Below are positions 3,069 to 55,836 of a stretch of 64,000 nucleotides of DNA, in pieces. This DNA comes from a virus: positions 53,742-117,741 of the IMG/VR virus record IMGVR_UViG_3300037225_001468; one strand, 5' to 3'. The number at the start of each line of letters is the position of its first letter. Position 1 is the first letter of the stretch. A model generated the notes under the pieces. That model searched no databases, had not been told where the DNA came from, and was given only the letters and a program-made list of their open reading frames with translations. The position numbers and the translations under genes were made by a program.

Positions 3069-3903
3069 CTCTTAGTTTCTTTCTATTTTTTATTTCTCCT
3101 TCAGTTAAATCTATGTTTTTATATTGAAGTGCTTTGTGTGTTGCTTTTAGATCTCTTACAAGTTTATACAAACCATCTCTTTCTAGAGAAGCACTGTGAT
3201 CATTTCCTTTAGCCGTTCGATCTAATGTAAAGTGTCGTTCAAACCAAGAGCAGCCTAAAGTGTAAGCAGCTATATCGACTGCTATACCAAGATTATGTCC
3301 GCTAAAGCCTTTAGTAAAAGAATTAGGTATTTGTGATATTTCTAAAAGAAACAAATCTTCAAATTTAACAGGATAGTCTGATGTTGTCCAATATAAAACT
3401 ATTCTTTTTCTAAAATCATAAAGAAAGCCATAAAGTTTATTTAACTCTTCTTTAGTTGACATTCCTAATGAAATATGTATATCTCCATTATATTTATTTA
3501 ATAGAGTTTTTATTAGATCGTAGTTGTTATTACAGGCAGAAGGAACTTTAATATAATCAGGATTTAATGAAATTATTTCTTCTGCTGAGGGTATATCCCA
3601 AACCGAACAAGAGTATTTTATTCCTATTTCATCACAATATTTTTTTAGTTCTTTATGAGTTTCTATATTAAACTCTAAAAACTTACGATGTTGAAGGTAG
3701 GTTTCGCCAAAAGAGTGCATTGGACAGGAGTGAGGCTGATTTTGAATTTCTTTTGGAACACAAATTTCAGGAACTCTTTTTTGAAACTTTACATAGTCGG
3801 CATTACATAATTTTGCCATTTTAATAAGTTCTTTTGCTGTTTCCGGATTGCCTTGATGATTTGCGCATAGTTCAGCGATGGTTTTTGGACTTTTATATTC
3901 CAT
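3058..3903 (-). CDS. neuB: NeuB-family nonulosonate(-9-phosphate) synthase, without C-terminal SAF domain
   Basis: IAELCANHQG, VKFQKR, KVPS, GFSGH, ERHFTLDR, GNDHSASL; likely start at MEYKSPK (3903). Confidence 0.9.
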   Translation of the reverse strand: MEYKSPKTIAELCANHQGNPETAKELIKMAKLCNADYVKFQKRVPEICVPKEIQNQPHSCPMHSFGETYLQHRKFLEFNIETHKELKKYCDEIGIKYSCSVWDIPSAEEIISLNPDYIKVPSACNNNYDLIKTLLNKYNGDIHISLGMSTKEELNKLYGFLYDFRKRIVLYWTTSDYPVKFEDLFLLEISQIPNSFTKGFSGHNLGIAVDIAAYTLGCSWFERHFTLDRTAKGNDHSASLERDGLYKLVRDLKATHKALQYKNIDLTEGEIKNRKKLRVIP

Positions 3904-4171
3904 TTTTTTGCTTTCTGAAAAATTGAGGATATAATATTTCATCGGCAGAAAAGTGGCGAAAAGGTAAATAGAATATGTGGAGCAGTAAGATTTTGTTCTA
4001 ATGGATTACCATCATTGGTAAAATGTATGTTTGAAAACCTTTTAGACGCACATAGAATGGCAGAAAAAGATTATGAAAAAAATATAAAGGTAGGTAATAT
4101 TAAAGTCGATAAAAACTTTTATAACTCGTTAATAGTAAAAGATAGCATATACATGTGAATAGGAGAAAAAT

Positions 4172-4909
4172 ATGGAAATAATATATGATAATGCTGATGA
4201 TGCTCACTATGTCTACTTTGATAATATATCGGTATATGTGATATATCATCCTAAAATAGATAATAAACAGATTGATAAATGGGTGGTATATAGGGAGCAA
4301 TACGATGCTGGTCATTTAGTCTATAATAAAAATAAACAAGTAAAGTTAATTGTTTCAATGTGGGGCGATGAGTTTTGGGAAACATTACCACTTAATATAC
4401 AATATTTCTTTAATACAATAAAAGAAGCAACAAATATAGCAAGTAGAGATTATTGTGAAAATATAGAAACTGGAATATACAAAAATAAACAAGATTATTA
4501 TGTTCCTTTTGCGCAAAAAATAAAAGATGAAAAAATTCATAAAATATTAGATATGATGAAGTATTTAGATATGACTAGTGTAGAGATGGGTGCTAAAAAA
4601 GAATGGTTTCCCAGAAATGCGGTAGCAGATGATGCGAACTTGTGTCTTGGTGTGTGTTTCAATACAACATGTCCAAAAAAAATACATTTAACGTGTTATT
4701 ATGTGACATGGGATAAGACGAGTAAATCTTATCATGACAAACTAGAAAGTATATCATTATTTAATATAACAGAAGACATTAAGGATGGCATAATAGATCA
4801 TCTAAAAGAAAAATGTATAAAATTCGCACAAAAGAAAGCATTAGAGAAAATAACGAAAGAAGAACTTAATAACAATAATCTCTCATATTGCCTTAAGGAA
4901 CAAAAATGA
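4172..4909 (+). CDS. hypothetical protein
   Basis: 245-aa ORF with AGGAG RBS. Confidence 0.65.
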   Translation: MEIIYDNADDAHYVYFDNISVYVIYHPKIDNKQIDKWVVYREQYDAGHLVYNKNKQVKLIVSMWGDEFWETLPLNIQYFFNTIKEATNIASRDYCENIETGIYKNKQDYYVPFAQKIKDEKIHKILDMMKYLDMTSVEMGAKKEWFPRNAVADDANLCLGVCFNTTCPKKIHLTCYYVTWDKTSKSYHDKLESISLFNITEDIKDGIIDHLKEKCIKFAQKKALEKITKEELNNNNLSYCLKEQK

Positions 4910-5421
4910 TAAAAGTTTTGATAGTTGATGTAGATGGCGTATTGAGCGATGGAAAGTATTATATCTCATCGTCCGGCGAAGTGATGAAGTCTTTTTACAC
5001 AAGAGATTTTGATGCTTTAAGAAGGATACAAGAACTTGGGGTTATTGTTGTTATTTTAAGCCAAGCTAAAGATGATTGTATGTGGCAAAAGTTTTGGCAA
5101 CTTAATTTAGAGAGTAAAAAGAAAATGTATGTTTTTAGTGAGGTAAAAAATAAATTAGAAAAAGTTGAAAATATTCTTGAAAATTGGGACCTAAAATGGG
5201 AGAATGTTGCGTATGTTGGTGATGCCGAAAACGATTTAGAATGTATGAAAAAAGCATTTTTGTCATTTTGTCCTAATGATGCTATAGAGAAAGTTAAAGA
5301 GGAAGCTAATTTAATATCTAATAAAGATGGTGGGTGTGGTGTAGTGTATGATATATTTTGTAGAACATGCGATGAGAATTATGGTGCCTTTTGTGATTAT
5401 GGAGATATGACAAATGATTAA
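4906..5421 (+). CDS. KdsC-family HAD phosphatase (KDO8P / KDN-9-P phosphatase-like)
   Basis: DVDGVLSDG, conserved K, YVGDAEND, CPNDA, GGCG motifs. Confidence 0.85.
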   Translation: MIKVLIVDVDGVLSDGKYYISSSGEVMKSFYTRDFDALRRIQELGVIVVILSQAKDDCMWQKFWQLNLESKKKMYVFSEVKNKLEKVENILENWDLKWENVAYVGDAENDLECMKKAFLSFCPNDAIEKVKEEANLISNKDGGCGVVYDIFCRTCDENYGAFCDYGDMTND

Positions 5422-5932
5422 ATTGAGAGATTGGCAGAAGGTTGTTCTTGATGAAATAGATAAACATGATGAAATAGTTGATTCTGAACTTTATTCTTCT
5501 ATGTCTGATTTAGAAATAAATAATAGAACAAGTATAAAGGTTAAGTTTCCTAAAGGTGCAGGTCATACTTTTTTAACAGCATATTTAGCAAGTCAAAAAT
5601 ATAATACTTTATTTATTTATTCTGATACAGATCATCTAAAAGAAATTCAACACTATAAAGAAGACATTCGTTCTAGCAGAAGTAAGGAAGAGATGAGTTC
5701 TGCTATTAAAGAGGTTGTAAATGATGGTTTATCTTTGTATGAAATATATTATGCTGTAAATCATGCTAATATGGTTAATCCCACAGAGAAACCAATAGTC
5801 ACATTAGCTTCTGTGAAGGCGAAAATATCAGGAAAAGATATCATTGTAATTGATAAGACTTCTTCGTTGCCTACTATTGTAGAAAGTTTTATTTTCAATG
5901 TAGCAACAGGAACTATTGTTCTTTTAGGTTAA
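5414..5932 (+). CDS. hypothetical protein with degenerate SF2 helicase-like N-terminus
   Basis: LRDWQ (Q-motif-like), PKGAGHT (Walker A-like, K replaced by H), IIVID. Confidence 0.45.
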   Translation: MIKLRDWQKVVLDEIDKHDEIVDSELYSSMSDLEINNRTSIKVKFPKGAGHTFLTAYLASQKYNTLFIYSDTDHLKEIQHYKEDIRSSRSKEEMSSAIKEVVNDGLSLYEIYYAVNHANMVNPTEKPIVTLASVKAKISGKDIIVIDKTSSLPTIVESFIFNVATGTIVLLG

Positions 5933-5946
5933 ATAGAGAAACAAAA

Positions 5947-6195
5947 ATGACTAATGATGAATTTGAAAAAGATTGGAGAAGTTATTCTATTGAATGTGAT
6001 GATGGAGTAATAATTTGTTTGAAGGATAAGATGATGATTTGTTGGGGAACTGTTGAGGACGGATTATTTTTTGATACTGGAGGAGAACAGGGGAGTCCCG
6101 CCTACCTCCTTAAAGTTGAAGGTAATGATCTTTTTCAAAAAGATAATGATGAAAAATGGGAAAAACTTGGCAAACTAGTGAAAACCAGCATATAA
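5947..6195 (+). CDS. hypothetical protein
   Basis: 82-aa ORF. Confidence 0.55.
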   Translation: MTNDEFEKDWRSYSIECDDGVIICLKDKMMICWGTVEDGLFFDTGGEQGSPAYLLKVEGNDLFQKDNDEKWEKLGKLVKTSI

Positions 6196-6196
6196 T
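6167..6196 (+). promoter_or_regulatory. putative sigma70-type promoter
   Basis: TTGGCA-N18-TATAAT upstream of the duplicated DUF1257 start. Confidence 0.4.
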
Positions 6197-6215
6197 ATAC
6201 AAAATGCTATTTAAG

Positions 6216-6250
6216 GAAAGAGAGGTGGCAAATTTCAGAATTCACCGTTG
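6216..6250 (+). repeat. 35-bp direct repeat copy 1 (RBS and first codons of the DUF1257 gene; dead-end copy)
   Basis: gaaagagaggtggCAAattTCAgaattcaccgttg, 30/35 identical to 7142-7176. Confidence 0.9.
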
Positions 6251-6321
6251 GTCGCGCGAAATATTTAATGATTTAGTAAATAAAAGAAGGACTTGTCATG
6301 TAGTTGAAGTATAAGTAGAAT

Positions 6322-7140
6322 ATGAATATGAAAAAGTTTAATAAAAGTAAAAAGTGGCTAGAAAAAGAATATTGTATTAAAAGAAATAAACTTGAGGATA
6401 TCGCTGAAAAAATAGGAGTAGATAGAACAACTATTTTTAATTGGACAAAAACATTTGGTCTTAAAAGACAAAAAATAGTTCCAGAAGTGGCAAATAGTAG
6501 AAAATATTCTGTAAATGAAGAATACTTTAATAAAATAGATACTGAAGAAAAAGCTTATTGGTTAGGATTTATTGCGGCAGATGGATGTGTTCAGTGTAGA
6601 AAAAGTAAAACTCTTCTTTCTGTAGAATTAGCAAAAAAGGATGAAGATCACTTGATAAAACTAAAAAACGCTATAGAATATACCGGTCCTCTTCATCAGA
6701 GAAAGGCAAAAAACGGCAAGGGATCAAGCTGTTGCTTACAGGTATCAAGTATGAAAATGGTTCCTGATTTAATGAGACACGGAATAGTTGAAAGAAAATC
6801 TAAAATCTTACAACCTCCCTTTATGATAAATAAAGAGTTTTATAGACATTGGATTAGGGGATTTTTTGATGGAGATGGGTCCATAAGTTTATGTAAAGAT
6901 GGTAGAATTAAAGGTGAATTCTTTTCAGGGTCAAAAAATATTATTGAGTTTATAGTTAAAGAATTTTTCCCGTTAAATATTTTTTTGACATTAGATATTT
7001 ATACGTCAAAAAATTGTCTTGGATTTCATAAAAGTTTTTCTGGAAAATATAGAATAAATCAACTACATAAGACAATGTATGATAATGCAACTGTTTATTT
7101 AGATAGAAAAAAGAAAATATTTGAACAAAATGTTATTTAA
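6322..7140 (+). CDS. free-standing LAGLIDADG homing endonuclease with N-terminal HTH
   Basis: HTH (LEDIAEKIGVDRTTIFNW), AYWLGFIAADG and WIRGFFDGDG motifs, YLDRK tail. Confidence 0.9.
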   Translation: MNMKKFNKSKKWLEKEYCIKRNKLEDIAEKIGVDRTTIFNWTKTFGLKRQKIVPEVANSRKYSVNEEYFNKIDTEEKAYWLGFIAADGCVQCRKSKTLLSVELAKKDEDHLIKLKNAIEYTGPLHQRKAKNGKGSSCCLQVSSMKMVPDLMRHGIVERKSKILQPPFMINKEFYRHWIRGFFDGDGSISLCKDGRIKGEFFSGSKNIIEFIVKEFFPLNIFLTLDIYTSKNCLGFHKSFSGKYRINQLHKTMYDNATVYLDRKKKIFEQNVI

Positions 7141-7559
7141 TGAAAGAGAGGTGGACAATTAGTGAATTCACCGTTGTAAATATAGAGTTAGACGACCAGG
7201 AGTGTCTTGTAAAATCTCTTGAAGAAATGGGATATAAGCCAGAAATTCATGAAGAGGCAAAAAACCTTTACGGATATCATGGAGATAAAAGAGTGCAAAA
7301 GGCTCATGTTATTGTTCCAAGATCACAAGTAGGTTCAGCCTCTAATGATGTTGGTTTTGAAAAAAATAATAATGGCAAGTTTACTATGCACCTTTCAGAA
7401 TATGATCGTCATGTTTTTAAGACAGATAAATTAAAGCAATTATATGCCAAGCATAGAGTAAATCAGTTTGTGAAAAAAAATGCCGGTAAGTATTCTCATA
7501 AAACTACCAAAGTAGATAAAGATGGAACTATTAGAATTCGTTTAACTAGATTTGGATAA
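7140..7559 (+). CDS. DUF1257 (Ycf35-like) protein
   Basis: SEFTVV..LDDQECLVKSLEEMG, LYGYHGDKR, SNDVGF, LKQLYA pattern. Confidence 0.75.
   Translation: MKERWTISEFTVVNIELDDQECLVKSLEEMGYKPEIHEEAKNLYGYHGDKRVQKAHVIVPRSQVGSASNDVGFEKNNNGKFTMHLSEYDRHVFKTDKLKQLYAKHRVNQFVKKNAGKYSHKTTKVDKDGTIRIRLTRFG
7142..7176 (+). repeat. 35-bp direct repeat copy 2 (functional 5' end of the DUF1257 gene)
   Basis: gaaagagaggtggACAattAGTgaattcaccgttg. Confidence 0.9.
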
Positions 7560-7567
7560 GGATAAAT

Positions 7568-8173
7568 ATGCCAAAAACAAAAGATCAAAAAAGAAATACA
7601 TTAAAAAGGGCAAAAGACTTTCAAAAAAGGCACTATTTTAATGAACTAAAAAATAGTATTTTAACTTTTAATAATCCTATTTTATCTCAGGTGTCACAAG
7701 ATGTGGCAAAAGAAGATAATTTAGATTTTATTGAAAAAATGAAAAAGGTATTATTTGTTAGTGAGAAAGGGGTGGGTTTAGCTGCTCCGCAGATAGGTGT
7801 ATTAAAGAAAGTTATTGTTTTAGACCCGAAAAAAGAAAATAAAATTAAAGTAATGATAAATCCAAGAATAACAGAAATATCTCAAGAGACCAATAATGTT
7901 TCTGAAGGATGTTTATCTTATCCTGATATTTATGTTCCAGTTGATAGAGCGAATAAAATTAAAGTAGAATATTTTACTACTTTATTTGAGAAGAAAGAAG
8001 AAGAGTTTATTGGGTTTGAAGCAAGAATAATTCAGCATGAAGTTGATCACTTGATAGGGGTTTGCTTGGTAGGGGAAGTGTGGAAAGAAAGTAAAGAAAA
8101 AGGTTTGCCAGTAGAAGAAATAATTAGAATAAGAAAAGAAGAAATAGAAAAAGCCGAATTAAGTATGAAATAA
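7568..8173 (+). CDS. def: peptide deformylase
   Basis: GVGLAAPQIG, EGCLS, QHEVDHL motifs. Confidence 0.95.
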   Translation: MPKTKDQKRNTLKRAKDFQKRHYFNELKNSILTFNNPILSQVSQDVAKEDNLDFIEKMKKVLFVSEKGVGLAAPQIGVLKKVIVLDPKKENKIKVMINPRITEISQETNNVSEGCLSYPDIYVPVDRANKIKVEYFTTLFEKKEEEFIGFEARIIQHEVDHLIGVCLVGEVWKESKEKGLPVEEIIRIRKEEIEKAELSMK

Positions 8174-8184
8174 GGAGAAAAAAG

Positions 8185-8376
8185 ATGAAGAAACAAGTGT
8201 TTATTAGTGTTCATGGATTATCTAAAAGCTTTGAGAGAGATGTTGCGTTTGATTTTGTTCGTGGTATTTTAGATTTAGAAGAAAAATATGAAGTATATTT
8301 TAATATAAGTTTTCCAGAGATGTCTAAACAAGAAATTTATGATATGGCAGATGAAATGCCTATTGATATCTATTAG
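8185..8376 (+). CDS. hypothetical protein
   Basis: 63-aa ORF, AAGGAG RBS. Confidence 0.6.
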   Translation: MKKQVFISVHGLSKSFERDVAFDFVRGILDLEEKYEVYFNISFPEMSKQEIYDMADEMPIDIY

Positions 8377-53364: not shown

Positions 53365-55836
53365 ATGAATAAAAAAGAATATATCAACATAATAAAAGAT
53401 TGTTATAAAGAGTATCAGAGTAAAGAAATGTGTCTTGGTTATGCTCAAATTATCTATGATCATTTAATGTCGTTAAGATATGTTAAAGATGAATTCATGA
53501 GTTATCCTAAAAGTGTTTTAGAAGATCTTTTTAAGGAAGATAATTTATCTAAATTATCATATTATCCTTGTGATGTTATAGAACTAAGATATGTTATTAG
53601 AAGTGAAAAGATTTTAACTATTAATCCTACAATTTATTTTTCTTTTGAATTTTCAAATAAACATTTTCAAGATTATCCTTTACTTTTAGGATTTGAGTGT
53701 GAAAAAAAAGATGATGGTTTTTCTTTGTCTCGAATGAATAAAAATCCTGAATTAAAAAGAGTTTATTTGAGAGAAGAATATATAGAAACAGAAATATGTG
53801 AAACCATTCAAAACATTATTAAAGACGAGAAGGTTTGTGTTGATTTTAATGTTATTTCTGATGTTCCGGGATTAAAAAATAAGAAGTTTGATTTGTCTGT
53901 ATTTAATTTATTGAAATTTTCAGGTGTAGAAGAAATTCAGTTTACAGAAAAGGAAAAAGCTATTTTTGATTTCTTGAGATATGTAAAACAGGTAAATCCT
54001 CAATTTGCCAATGTAGTGTTAAGAGTGGCCGGCGGGTTCGTTCGTGACAAATTACTTGGAATACCAAGTGATGATATAGATATAGCTTTATCTGGTATAA
54101 CTGGAAAACCATTTGTTGAAGCAATAATGAAAGTTGGACAAACAATGAAAGATAGTCCAGTTGGAAAATCTTATTTAGTTGAACAAGATGTAGAAAAGAG
54201 TAAGCATTTAGAAACTGCTGGGGTTGATATTTTCGGGCAAAAAATAGAATTTGTAAATCTTAGAACTGAGATTTATGATCCTGCTTCTCGCATTCCAGTA
54301 ATGGCTATTACAGATGATCCTGCCGCAGATGCCATAAGAAGAGATTTAACCATAAATGCTTTATTTTACAATATAGATACTGGAAAGGTTGAAGATCACG
54401 TAAATGGAAGAGAAGATTTGAAAAATATGAACCTTCGCACTCCATTAGATCCAGTAAAAACATTTACTGATGATCCTTTAAGAATGTTGAGAGTATTAAG
54501 GTTTTATAGTAAATATCCTAATTCTCATATTGATCCTAAAATAGTAGAAGCAATGAAAAATCCAGAAGTTCAACAAAAATATTCTAAATTATCTACCGAA
54601 AGAGCTTCTAAAGAAATTCGCAAAATGATGGAAGGTGACAAAGCTGTTCCTGCCGTTAGAATATTATTAGAAACTGGTTTGTATAAAAAGGTATTTCAAA
54701 TTCCAGAAGACTGGCATGATATTACTATGGATCAAGCTAATGCTCATCATAAATTAAACTTGATGGAACATACTCTTGCTGTTATGGAAAATTATGATAA
54801 AATAGCAAAAGAACAAAATCTTCCTAAAGAAGAAAGAGGTTTAATGAGGATTTCGACACTGATGCACGATTTTGCTAAAATGAGCCCTCAAATAAGAAAA
54901 GAACATCCTAAAAAGCCGGGGCAATATAGATATATTGGACACGATCAGGAATCAGCAAGGTTTGCTGAAAACATTATGACAAGAATGGGATTTGAGCCAA
55001 CAGAGAAAAAGTTTGTTACCACAATAATTTCAAATCACATGAGTCCTCACACTATAAGACCTAATATGGATCCAAAAGCCATTGGTAGGTTTTTGAATAA
55101 AACAACTCAATATTATAAGAGAGTTATGGAACATGCACATGCTGATGAATTAAGTAAGGGTTGGTTTGAAAATGGAGAAGAGGAGACCTTAAAAAAACAA
55201 CACCAAGATGCTATAGCAAAAATAGAAGCATATCGTCAACAGATGGGGGAAAGAGTTTTTAAGCCTGTTATTGATGGCAATAAAATTAAAGCAATAGTTC
55301 AAGAAGTTGCTCCTGAAATGGTAGCTAAAAATGCTATGATAAAAACTAAAGAAGGTATGAAACCGGTTCATTATATGACTTATTTGATTGGGCAACTTAT
55401 GGAACAGCAATGGTCTCAGAGAGTAAATAACGAAGTAGAGGCGGATAAGTTTGTTCGTGGAGCAGTAAAGAACATTTTTAATCTATGGAAAAGCCAACAA
55501 TTAAATAATCCGGTAGATAAAAAAGCAGACGCCTCTTCAAGTGAAGGCCCGGATGGTGGAGACGGATATGAAGGAAATACTTTTAGGGGTAGTAAAGATG
55601 ATATGGTTTTTATGTGGCATTCTTCTCCTACTCGTTTTAGAAAAGGTTCAAAAGTAAGAATGAATACTTCTTTTGGCGGAAAAGGATTGGGTTCTGAACA
55701 AATTGAGGGAAGAGTTGTTTCTCTAAATGAAATTAAAATGATAGTAGAGTGGGAGTCTCCTGAAAAATATAAAGGGAAGAGAACGGGTTATGATTTGACT
55801 GACACCGTTCGATTAGGAAAGTTAAACGTAATATGA
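53365..55836 (+). CDS. cca: class II tRNA nucleotidyltransferase (CCA-adding) with HD domain and N-/C-terminal extensions
   Basis: VAGGFVRD, DDIDI, EFVNLR.E, RRDLTINALF, DDPLRMLR, EHT..MHDFAK..GHD; start reassigned to ATG 53365. Confidence 0.88.
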   Translation: MNKKEYINIIKDCYKEYQSKEMCLGYAQIIYDHLMSLRYVKDEFMSYPKSVLEDLFKEDNLSKLSYYPCDVIELRYVIRSEKILTINPTIYFSFEFSNKHFQDYPLLLGFECEKKDDGFSLSRMNKNPELKRVYLREEYIETEICETIQNIIKDEKVCVDFNVISDVPGLKNKKFDLSVFNLLKFSGVEEIQFTEKEKAIFDFLRYVKQVNPQFANVVLRVAGGFVRDKLLGIPSDDIDIALSGITGKPFVEAIMKVGQTMKDSPVGKSYLVEQDVEKSKHLETAGVDIFGQKIEFVNLRTEIYDPASRIPVMAITDDPAADAIRRDLTINALFYNIDTGKVEDHVNGREDLKNMNLRTPLDPVKTFTDDPLRMLRVLRFYSKYPNSHIDPKIVEAMKNPEVQQKYSKLSTERASKEIRKMMEGDKAVPAVRILLETGLYKKVFQIPEDWHDITMDQANAHHKLNLMEHTLAVMENYDKIAKEQNLPKEERGLMRISTLMHDFAKMSPQIRKEHPKKPGQYRYIGHDQESARFAENIMTRMGFEPTEKKFVTTIISNHMSPHTIRPNMDPKAIGRFLNKTTQYYKRVMEHAHADELSKGWFENGEEETLKKQHQDAIAKIEAYRQQMGERVFKPVIDGNKIKAIVQEVAPEMVAKNAMIKTKEGMKPVHYMTYLIGQLMEQQWSQRVNNEVEADKFVRGAVKNIFNLWKSQQLNNPVDKKADASSSEGPDGGDGYEGNTFRGSKDDMVFMWHSSPTRFRKGSKVRMNTSFGGKGLGSEQIEGRVVSLNEIKMIVEWESPEKYKGKRTGYDLTDTVRLGKLNVI

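Follow-up and report, generated by a model that had tools for sequence, protein, structure and literature searches.

The window analysed here, a stretch of 64,000 nucleotides (nt) forming the right-hand part of the 117,741-nt virus record IMGVR_UViG_3300037225_001468 of IMG/VR (positions 53,742 to 117,741), carries a LAGLIDADG endonuclease open reading frame (ORF) at 6322-7140, directly followed by a gene of the DUF1257 family at 7140-7559; these two, the neighbouring genes and the repeat lie on the plus strand. The endonuclease ORF is bracketed by an imperfect direct repeat of 52 nt, whose upstream copy (U, 6199-6250) and downstream copy (D, 7125-7176) are identical at 45 of the 52 positions and enclose a unique insert of 874 nt (6251-7124). 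U is composed of a spacer, the Shine-Dalgarno sequence GAGAGGTGG (6220-6228) and an ATT codon at 6232 followed by TCA GAA TTC ACC GTT G. D is composed of the end of the endonuclease ORF, a TAATG overlap, the same Shine-Dalgarno sequence (7146-7154) and an ATT codon at 7158, after which AGT GAA TTC ACC GTT G is read. A sequence-only reading of this DNA had described 35-bp direct repeats with 30 of 35 positions identical, distinguished by CAA/ACA in the spacer and TCA/AGT in the serine codon, and exactly this was found at 6216-6250 and 7142-7176 (U CAA and TCA, D ACA and AGT, the serine being codon 2); the 35 nt are the core of the longer repeat. Outside the core the copies differ at C6207/T7133 and G6215/T7141. 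The latter difference makes the ATG at 7140 and the TAATG overlap in D; U reads AGG at the equivalent place and has no in-frame ATG, GTG or TTG from the upstream stop to the ATT. Local alignment of the two flanks gave a score of 69, the maximum in 100 shuffles being 31. Since the repeat extends over 52 nt, the final five codons of the nuclease ORF fall within D, and the closing 16 nt of that ORF (..EQNVI*) duplicate the spacer after the upstream gene. A GC-rich octamer (6251-6258) stands exactly at the junction of U and the insert, in otherwise AT-rich DNA.

Translation from the ATT in U gives only a dead-end stub, ISEFTVGRAKYLMI* (6232-6276), whose first six codons correspond to the DUF1257 N-terminus when compared with homologues. 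The downstream copy enters a full gene, the product of which has 133 amino acids (aa) counted from ATT 7158 or 139 aa from ATG 7140; the proposed contrast between a truncated upstream and a complete downstream copy was thus confirmed. The protein matched PF06868 over profile positions 2-102 of 103 (36.7 bits, cut-off 22.2, 5.3e-9), and 52 DUF1257 homologues were obtained at E<=0.001 among 55 candidates. Because these homologues begin with MSE[FY]H at the place of Ile7 of the window protein, the canonical start is, by this comparison, ATT 7158 behind GAGAGGTGG, as had been suggested. The claimed TAATG coupling of the gene to the nuclease stands as far as the overlap is concerned, but its ATG is located 18 nt upstream of the canonical start. 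The stub, nuclease and gene structure is real and not an assembly artefact, since Logan contigs of four further peat-metagenome runs (X4-X7, compared with 5400-8200 at 85% likeness) bridge both junctions with zero differences.

LAGLIDADG homing endonucleases make site-specific double-strand cuts in targets of 18-22 bp. The window enzyme is a free-standing protein of 272 aa, consisting of an N-terminal DNA-binding module and two LAGLIDADG motifs, each closed by a conserved acidic residue, which is the pattern of the single-chain members of the family. It was matched by PF14528 (LAGLIDADG_3; 39.3 bits, cut-off 22.5, 7.7e-10), by PF00961 (LAGLIDADG_1; 27.6 bits, cut-off 23.1, 5.6e-6), by phrog_4645 of the PHROG database, annotated 'endonuclease' (1.2e-49), and weakly by the putative homing endonuclease of PDB entry 2dch (2.5e-4). 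The residues G82, F83, A85, A86, D87 and G88 of the first motif region and G180, F182, D183, G184, D185 and G186 of the second were invariant in 6/6 aligned homologues, and the aspartic acids of the two motifs are those we take to be catalytic. The C-terminus common to the family (..RKxxxF) stops at 7121, three bases short of the repeat boundary at 7124, and beyond it each homologue has a short tail of its own.

The comparison of 133 DUF1257 loci, 53 from IMG/VR and 80 from metagenomes, showed that homologues of the window nuclease, 39-47% identical, are present in 13 further distinct loci (L004, L015, L020, L023, L024, L139, L170, L178, L186, L187, L192, L206 and L213), giving 14 with the window; in L180 the contig breaks off within a further homologue. 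Wherever the locus is complete, the nuclease ORF ends 30-80 nt before the start of a DUF1257 gene. Most of the relatives contain two tandem DUF1257 paralogues, and the nuclease gene precedes either the first (e.g. L170, L187, L192) or the second of them (L178, L186, L206). The nuclease family has at least 539 relatives in IMG/VR, and of the best 80 just the two closest adjoin DUF1257. On the DUF1257 tree of 137 rows, the presence of the nuclease required 11 changes for 14 carriers, the shuffled mean being 13.4; a homing element would be expected to show such a sporadic pattern. Two of the homologues are unusual in their organization. The one at L020:2101-2994 is a protein of 297 aa with the N-terminal DNA-binding module present twice, and that at L139:1688-2459 was matched in two frames (query residues 2-69 and 68-270); the L139 copy appears frameshifted and would be a decaying one, as late in a homing cycle.

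Four of the loci have a readable stub upstream of the nuclease gene and a different working start behind it. The stub is ATG AGC GAA TTT in L023 and ATG TCT GAA TTT in L024, the working start being ATT TCT in both; in L170 the stub ATG AGC GAG T is paired with GTG AGT, and in L192 ATG AGC GAA TAT is paired with ATC TCA. Altogether, five loci show a difference between stub and working start, located at the start codon, the spacer or serine 2 (Ser2). A long flanking repeat was found in L178, where 72-75 nt gave a score of 105 against a shuffle maximum of 30. The two near-perfect copies (2921-2992 and 3854-3928) surround the endonuclease gene and comprise the codons with which the first DUF1257 paralogue ends (..LKVKD*), together with the inter-paralogue spacer, so that the L178 nuclease shares its final five residues with its upstream neighbour. 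The tail LLKVKD is also carried by nucleases ahead of the first paralogue (L187, L192), and its occurrence at both sites suggests that the nuclease moved between the two paralogous DUF1257 sites.

One pair of loci provides a clean empty site. L167, which has no nuclease gene, and L170, which has one, are about 90% identical in DNA. The gene of L167 is uninterrupted (ATG AGC GAG TAT ...); L170 keeps the same ten bases as its stub, is interrupted after coding nt 10 by an 827-nt insert, and restarts as GTG AGT GAG TAT behind a new Shine-Dalgarno sequence located in the 3' end of the nuclease ORF. Divergence between the two has its maximum at the insertion site, with 6 mismatches in the first 30 nt of the gene, a density that drops to some 1 per 30 nt at distances above 300 nt, and with 2-3 decreasing to 0-1 per 30 nt on the left of the site. 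This gradient looks like a co-conversion tract.

The serine codon following the start was examined in 92 gene copies having Ser at all three conserved columns. Between the codon families TCN and AGY, Ser2 changed 27 times on the tree (shuffled mean 30.8, range 23-37), the control serines Ser68 and Ser86 changing 9 times (29.8) and 6 times (11.5), respectively. The changes at Ser2 being near the shuffled mean and those of the controls below theirs, the codon family of Ser2 is without phylogenetic signal and that of both controls has it. In 26 independent close pairs Ser2 had more mismatches than any other codon within the first 150 nt, 38% of the pairs being different there at all three positions; start codons differed in their third base in 33% of close pairs, and in some pairs, e.g. 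L146/L154 and L005/L159, entire leaders were swapped between close relatives. The triple synonymous TCA/AGT change to which the sequence-only reading had drawn attention is therefore present in the window, but it is not a private mark of the element: such switching is common family-wide and occurs between nuclease-free relatives also, so that it must be regarded as a property of the site. Either selection favours changes of the DNA that leave the protein as it is, or exchange of 5' cassettes is frequent, and both fit endonuclease activity at this spot.

The start codons themselves are also variable. The 138 distinct gene copies begin with ATG in 81 cases, ATT, ATC or ATA in 40, ACG in 7, GTG in 7 and TTG in 3, and the non-ATG starts are often preceded by the conserved leader AGAGAGGTGTATT. 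Loci without ATG, GTG or TTG at the conserved start include L005, L013, L137, L138, L146, L149, L168, L171, L177, L181, L184-L187, L190-L192, L195, L197, L203, L206 and L213, in addition to the window (7146-7160 and 6220-6234). Such starts are extended or missed by gene callers, P0017 and P0025, for instance, having been called as MRCI-ISEYH. A further observation concerns L004 (= L142-L144), in which a second DUF1257 copy at 3462-3781 behind the intact gene matches only in three short pieces and is probably a decayed paralogue.

Taken together, we consider it rather probable that the locus represents an element built around a free-standing homing endonuclease gene (HEG) of the LAGLIDADG type, which is specialised for the 5' ends of DUF1257 genes in phages and supplies a replacement start. 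Such an element would sit a few codons inside DUF1257, leaving the original start upstream as a short dead-end stub. Directly behind the nuclease ORF lie another ribosome-binding site, a start codon (ATT in the window) and the opening codons of DUF1257, which continue into the intact gene; the gene would not be restored by splicing, since the element is without intron or intein. We infer that the enzyme would cut nuclease-free alleles near DUF1257 codons 4-7, and that repair would copy the nuclease gene and the replacement start from the donor. The altered start codon, spacer and Ser2 bases would then prevent recutting of the regenerated site, rendering the D allele immune, and would reduce recombination between U and D. 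In the preferred history of the window, a resident ATT-TCA allele would have been cut near codon 7 and repaired from a closely related donor with an ATT-AGT start and the nuclease gene; on the left, an illegitimate joint would have been formed at 6250/6251, beside the GC-rich octamer. Here the start codon cannot be the difference between the copies, because ATT is present in both.

Which of the two window alleles, TCA in U or AGT in D, was resident is something we infer, since a search covering phage records, IMG/VR and metagenomes gave no nuclease-free relative from the lineage of the window itself. The nearest nuclease-free DUF1257, the second copy of L176, has 73% protein identity; it reads ATC TCA, in the serine family of U, and thereby points faintly to TCA as the resident allele. 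Comparison with 50,697 phage records by blastn and tblastn gave short nuclease matches only, or nothing, single-protein scans of IMG/VR gave no relative of the window DUF1257 protein or of the 82-aa ORF upstream of it, and the repeat core, sought as an exact pattern in IMG/VR, had 0 matches.

The lack of such a relative weighs against the interpretation, and so do several other points. The contigs of X4-X7 contained the nuclease-bearing form only and no joints, although contigs drop rare variants, so that this does not show the absence of an empty form. Flanking repeats exceeded shuffle scores in only 2 of 13 loci, the window and L178; in the other 11 the flanking similarity was within the range of chance, and the short stubs there therefore rest on position and reading. 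The start codon shared by U and D deprives the window of one of the supposed protective differences. ATT, ATC or ATA starts were counted in 12 of 14 nuclease carriers against 28 of 124 non-carriers as raw numbers; as a mark of the nuclease, however, the non-ATG start was rejected, being not significant over independent pairs (same 3.5, opposite 0.1, none 6.4 of 10). The switching at Ser2 could result from selection on translation initiation or from general recombination, and the tree on which the distribution of the nuclease was counted is a FastTree of a protein of 130 aa. Finally, the stub allele of L192 is not shared by its nuclease-free relatives (L184, L185, L190), which have the D-like allele of the working copy; L139 and L187 have their insert upstream of the leader and lack a coding stub; and the structure in the window is symmetrical, being equally readable as U and the unique part inserted before a resident D.

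This last possibility deserves consideration as an opposite direction of insertion. D with its AGT would be the resident allele, the stub in U would be the left homology arm of the element, left over from the target in an earlier host, and the insert would span 6199-7124 and lie in the spacer that follows the upstream gene, with the nuclease ORF reading into resident DNA. L192, L139 and L187 speak in its favour, as does the family C-terminus ending at 7121, so near to the boundary, with locus-specific tails such as would arise by read-out into local DNA. Against this, in L167/L170, the one empty-site pair that is clean, the stub is the resident allele and the element supplies the working start; in the window, U adjoins the upstream gene without a break; and the distant L176 copy has TCA like U. 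We regard this direction as unlikely. Two expectations of the sequence-only reading are borne out in part: the arrangement of stub, nuclease and new start recurs, with an insertion a few codons into the gene and the stub allele continuous with the gene of a nuclease-free relative in L167/L170, but L192 with its three relatives shows the opposite.

More remote is an ordinary intergenic endonuclease gene, which cuts elsewhere, whose illegitimate insertion duplicated 52 nt and left a junk stub subject to drift. Known free-standing phage endonucleases do cut hundreds to thousands of bp away (PMC2988022), and the insignificance of the flanking repeats in 11 of 13 loci would agree with such an origin. 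Nevertheless, a triple change keeping serine is unexpected in an untranslated relic, stubs or repeats occur at the same gene start in at least six loci, the nuclease is always directly 5' of DUF1257, whether paralogue A or B, and the divergence in L167/L170 culminates at the insertion site; the explanation is accordingly held to be improbable. Hardly any weight can be given to a cryptic intron or intein, with the upstream stub as the true first exon, which has no positive support. No group I or group II intron was matched in Rfam, which covers described families only, at E<=10, where merely chance snoRNA and sRNA matches appeared; with 71 nt of insert sequence before the nuclease ORF and none behind it, the insert is too small for a ribozyme core; an intein is excluded by four in-frame stops (6274, 6277, 6301, 6316), which separate the stub from the nuclease ORF; and the copy behind the nuclease is a whole gene, provided with a ribosome-binding site of its own. 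The earlier view that neither an intron nor an intein is present was thereby upheld.

It is tempting to speculate further that a phage LAGLIDADG lineage manages insertion into coding sequences without splicing by means of a portable gene start (ribosome-binding site, non-AUG start and recoded first codons) and has, by repeated invasion, loss and renewed invasion, turned DUF1257 codons 1-2 into the site of an arms race, although this extension of the favoured interpretation is put forward tentatively. With the same reserve, the TCN/AGY switching and the AUU, AUC, AUA and ACG starts (47/138, about one third) might be footprints of past endonuclease attack. Somewhat doubtfully too, the window, with ATT in both copies, might represent a second invasion of an allele left by the first.

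CheckV estimated the completeness of the source record at 23%, so that it probably represents a part of some very large phage, and DNA of the window is also present in peat-metagenome runs. The locus is preceded by a gene for a HAD-type hydrolase (4906-5421), a 172-aa ORF (5414-5932) and an 82-aa ORF (5947-6195), which has no Pfam or PHROG match and whose stop lies 3 nt ahead of U, and it is followed by a peptide deformylase gene (7568-8173). The flanking order of hydrolase and deformylase is kept across related phage contigs, some of them longer than 400 kb. Between these two genes most relatives have the tandem DUF1257 paralogues mentioned above (L005, L013, L017, L150-L153, L159, L167, L170, L171, L176, L181, L183-L189, L192-L194, L197, L198, L200, L205, L208 and others) and the window has one gene; in L176, the nearest relative, the window-like gene is the second copy. 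No LAGLIDADG gene besides 6322-7140 was found in the 117,741-nt record, and thus no second one bracketed by a recoded gene start, for which the sequence-only reading had proposed to look, the HNH and GIY-YIG families not being part of this search.

The nuclease gene has a conserved leader (6280-6321), consisting of a GGA-TTGTC-ATG-TAG motif and an AAGTATA-like box in an alignment of 11 elements. Its consensus across the 11 loci, AAATAAAGGATTTGTCATGT.GT.TAAGTA.AATA, is non-coding and is conserved although the proteins of these elements are no more than 40-47% identical. In the window a promoter-like TTGTCA-17-TAGAAT (6293-6321, 10/12 consensus matches) ends at the nuclease ATG, which would imply a leaderless or near-leaderless mRNA. 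That the leader serves as a promoter is offered as a suggestion from the motif, promoter-like sites in the region being no commoner than in shuffles (10 vs 9.3); alternatively, it could be the relic of an older DUF1257 start. A two-codon ORF, ATG-TAG, is located within it at 6298-6303. The best sigma-70-like match of the region is TTGGCA-18-TATAAT (6167-6196, 11/12), which lies in the end of the 82-aa ORF, upstream of U, and may be the original DUF1257 promoter.

To our knowledge, HEGs persist inside genes only by means of an intron or intein, and otherwise in intergenic DNA. The window locus and its 13 relatives would add a third route for phage HEGs, namely a spare gene start. The stub alleles, the working alleles and the one empty site form a natural set for mapping LAGLIDADG recognition and the synonymous escape of the target, and the element may explain why, in one family of phage genes, non-AUG starts are oddly clustered and the 5' ends scrambled. 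In annotating phage genomes it should be kept in mind that DUF1257 stubs and ATT starts are easily miscalled. In nrdA of the Aeromonas phage Aeh1, the endonuclease gene mobE is reportedly inserted in the coding region without intron or intein, and both gene pieces are said to be translated and to assemble into one enzyme; unlike this, the upstream piece in the window is a relic of six codons and the downstream piece encodes the whole protein.

The literature searched, which omits most subscription journals, gave no account of a phage endonuclease accompanied by a duplicated 5' gene end, and the search for DUF1257 together with phages turned up only work on algal organellar genomes. In the parts of the sources available, nothing comparable to a duplicated gene start was seen in PMC2248197 and PMC10448857, and PMC5626475 and PMC4162613, considered as precedents of gene-end duplication, were rejected as dealing with duplications of other kinds.

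Two known systems are closest. The seg and mob genes of phage T4 are free-standing endonuclease genes located between phage genes and spread by intronless homing (PMC2988022). The window family resembles them in its sporadic occurrence among relatives and in what looks like co-conversion of flanking markers (PMC2988022). The T4 enzymes, however, are of the GIY-YIG or HNH type, are intergenic and cut hundreds to thousands of bp off (PMC2988022), and the window family is LAGLIDADG and, unlike them, inserted within the first codons of its target, with a duplicated and altered gene start.

The second system is that of the mobile ORFs (mORFs) of fungal mitochondria, which carry a duplicated gene C-terminus that displaces the native one, the examples being atp6 of Allomyces macrogynus and atp6, atp9, cox2 and nad3 of Glomus (PMC3630166). 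The comparison with fungal gene-end duplication drawn from the window's DNA was thus borne out. Both systems have an endonuclease gene (LAGLIDADG or GIY-YIG in mORFs) within a coding region and no intron; in both, the diverged gene end brought by the element would be the expressed one, the native end would be an unexpressed relic, and the differences between the copies are largely synonymous (PMC3630166). The native end of the mORF genes matches nuclease-free relatives (PMC3630166); in the window family the stub does so in L167/L170, and L192 shows the opposite. The mORFs differ in that the 3' end is duplicated, often fused in frame. The window family occurs in bacteriophage and duplicates the 5' end, the nuclease ORF remaining separate and the duplicated piece being far shorter, 10-75 nt; because it is the 5' end that is duplicated, the replacement must include a ribosome-binding site and a start codon. 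The window family combines the gene-end duplication of the fungal elements with the intronless homing of the phage endonucleases, as a phage 5'-end version.

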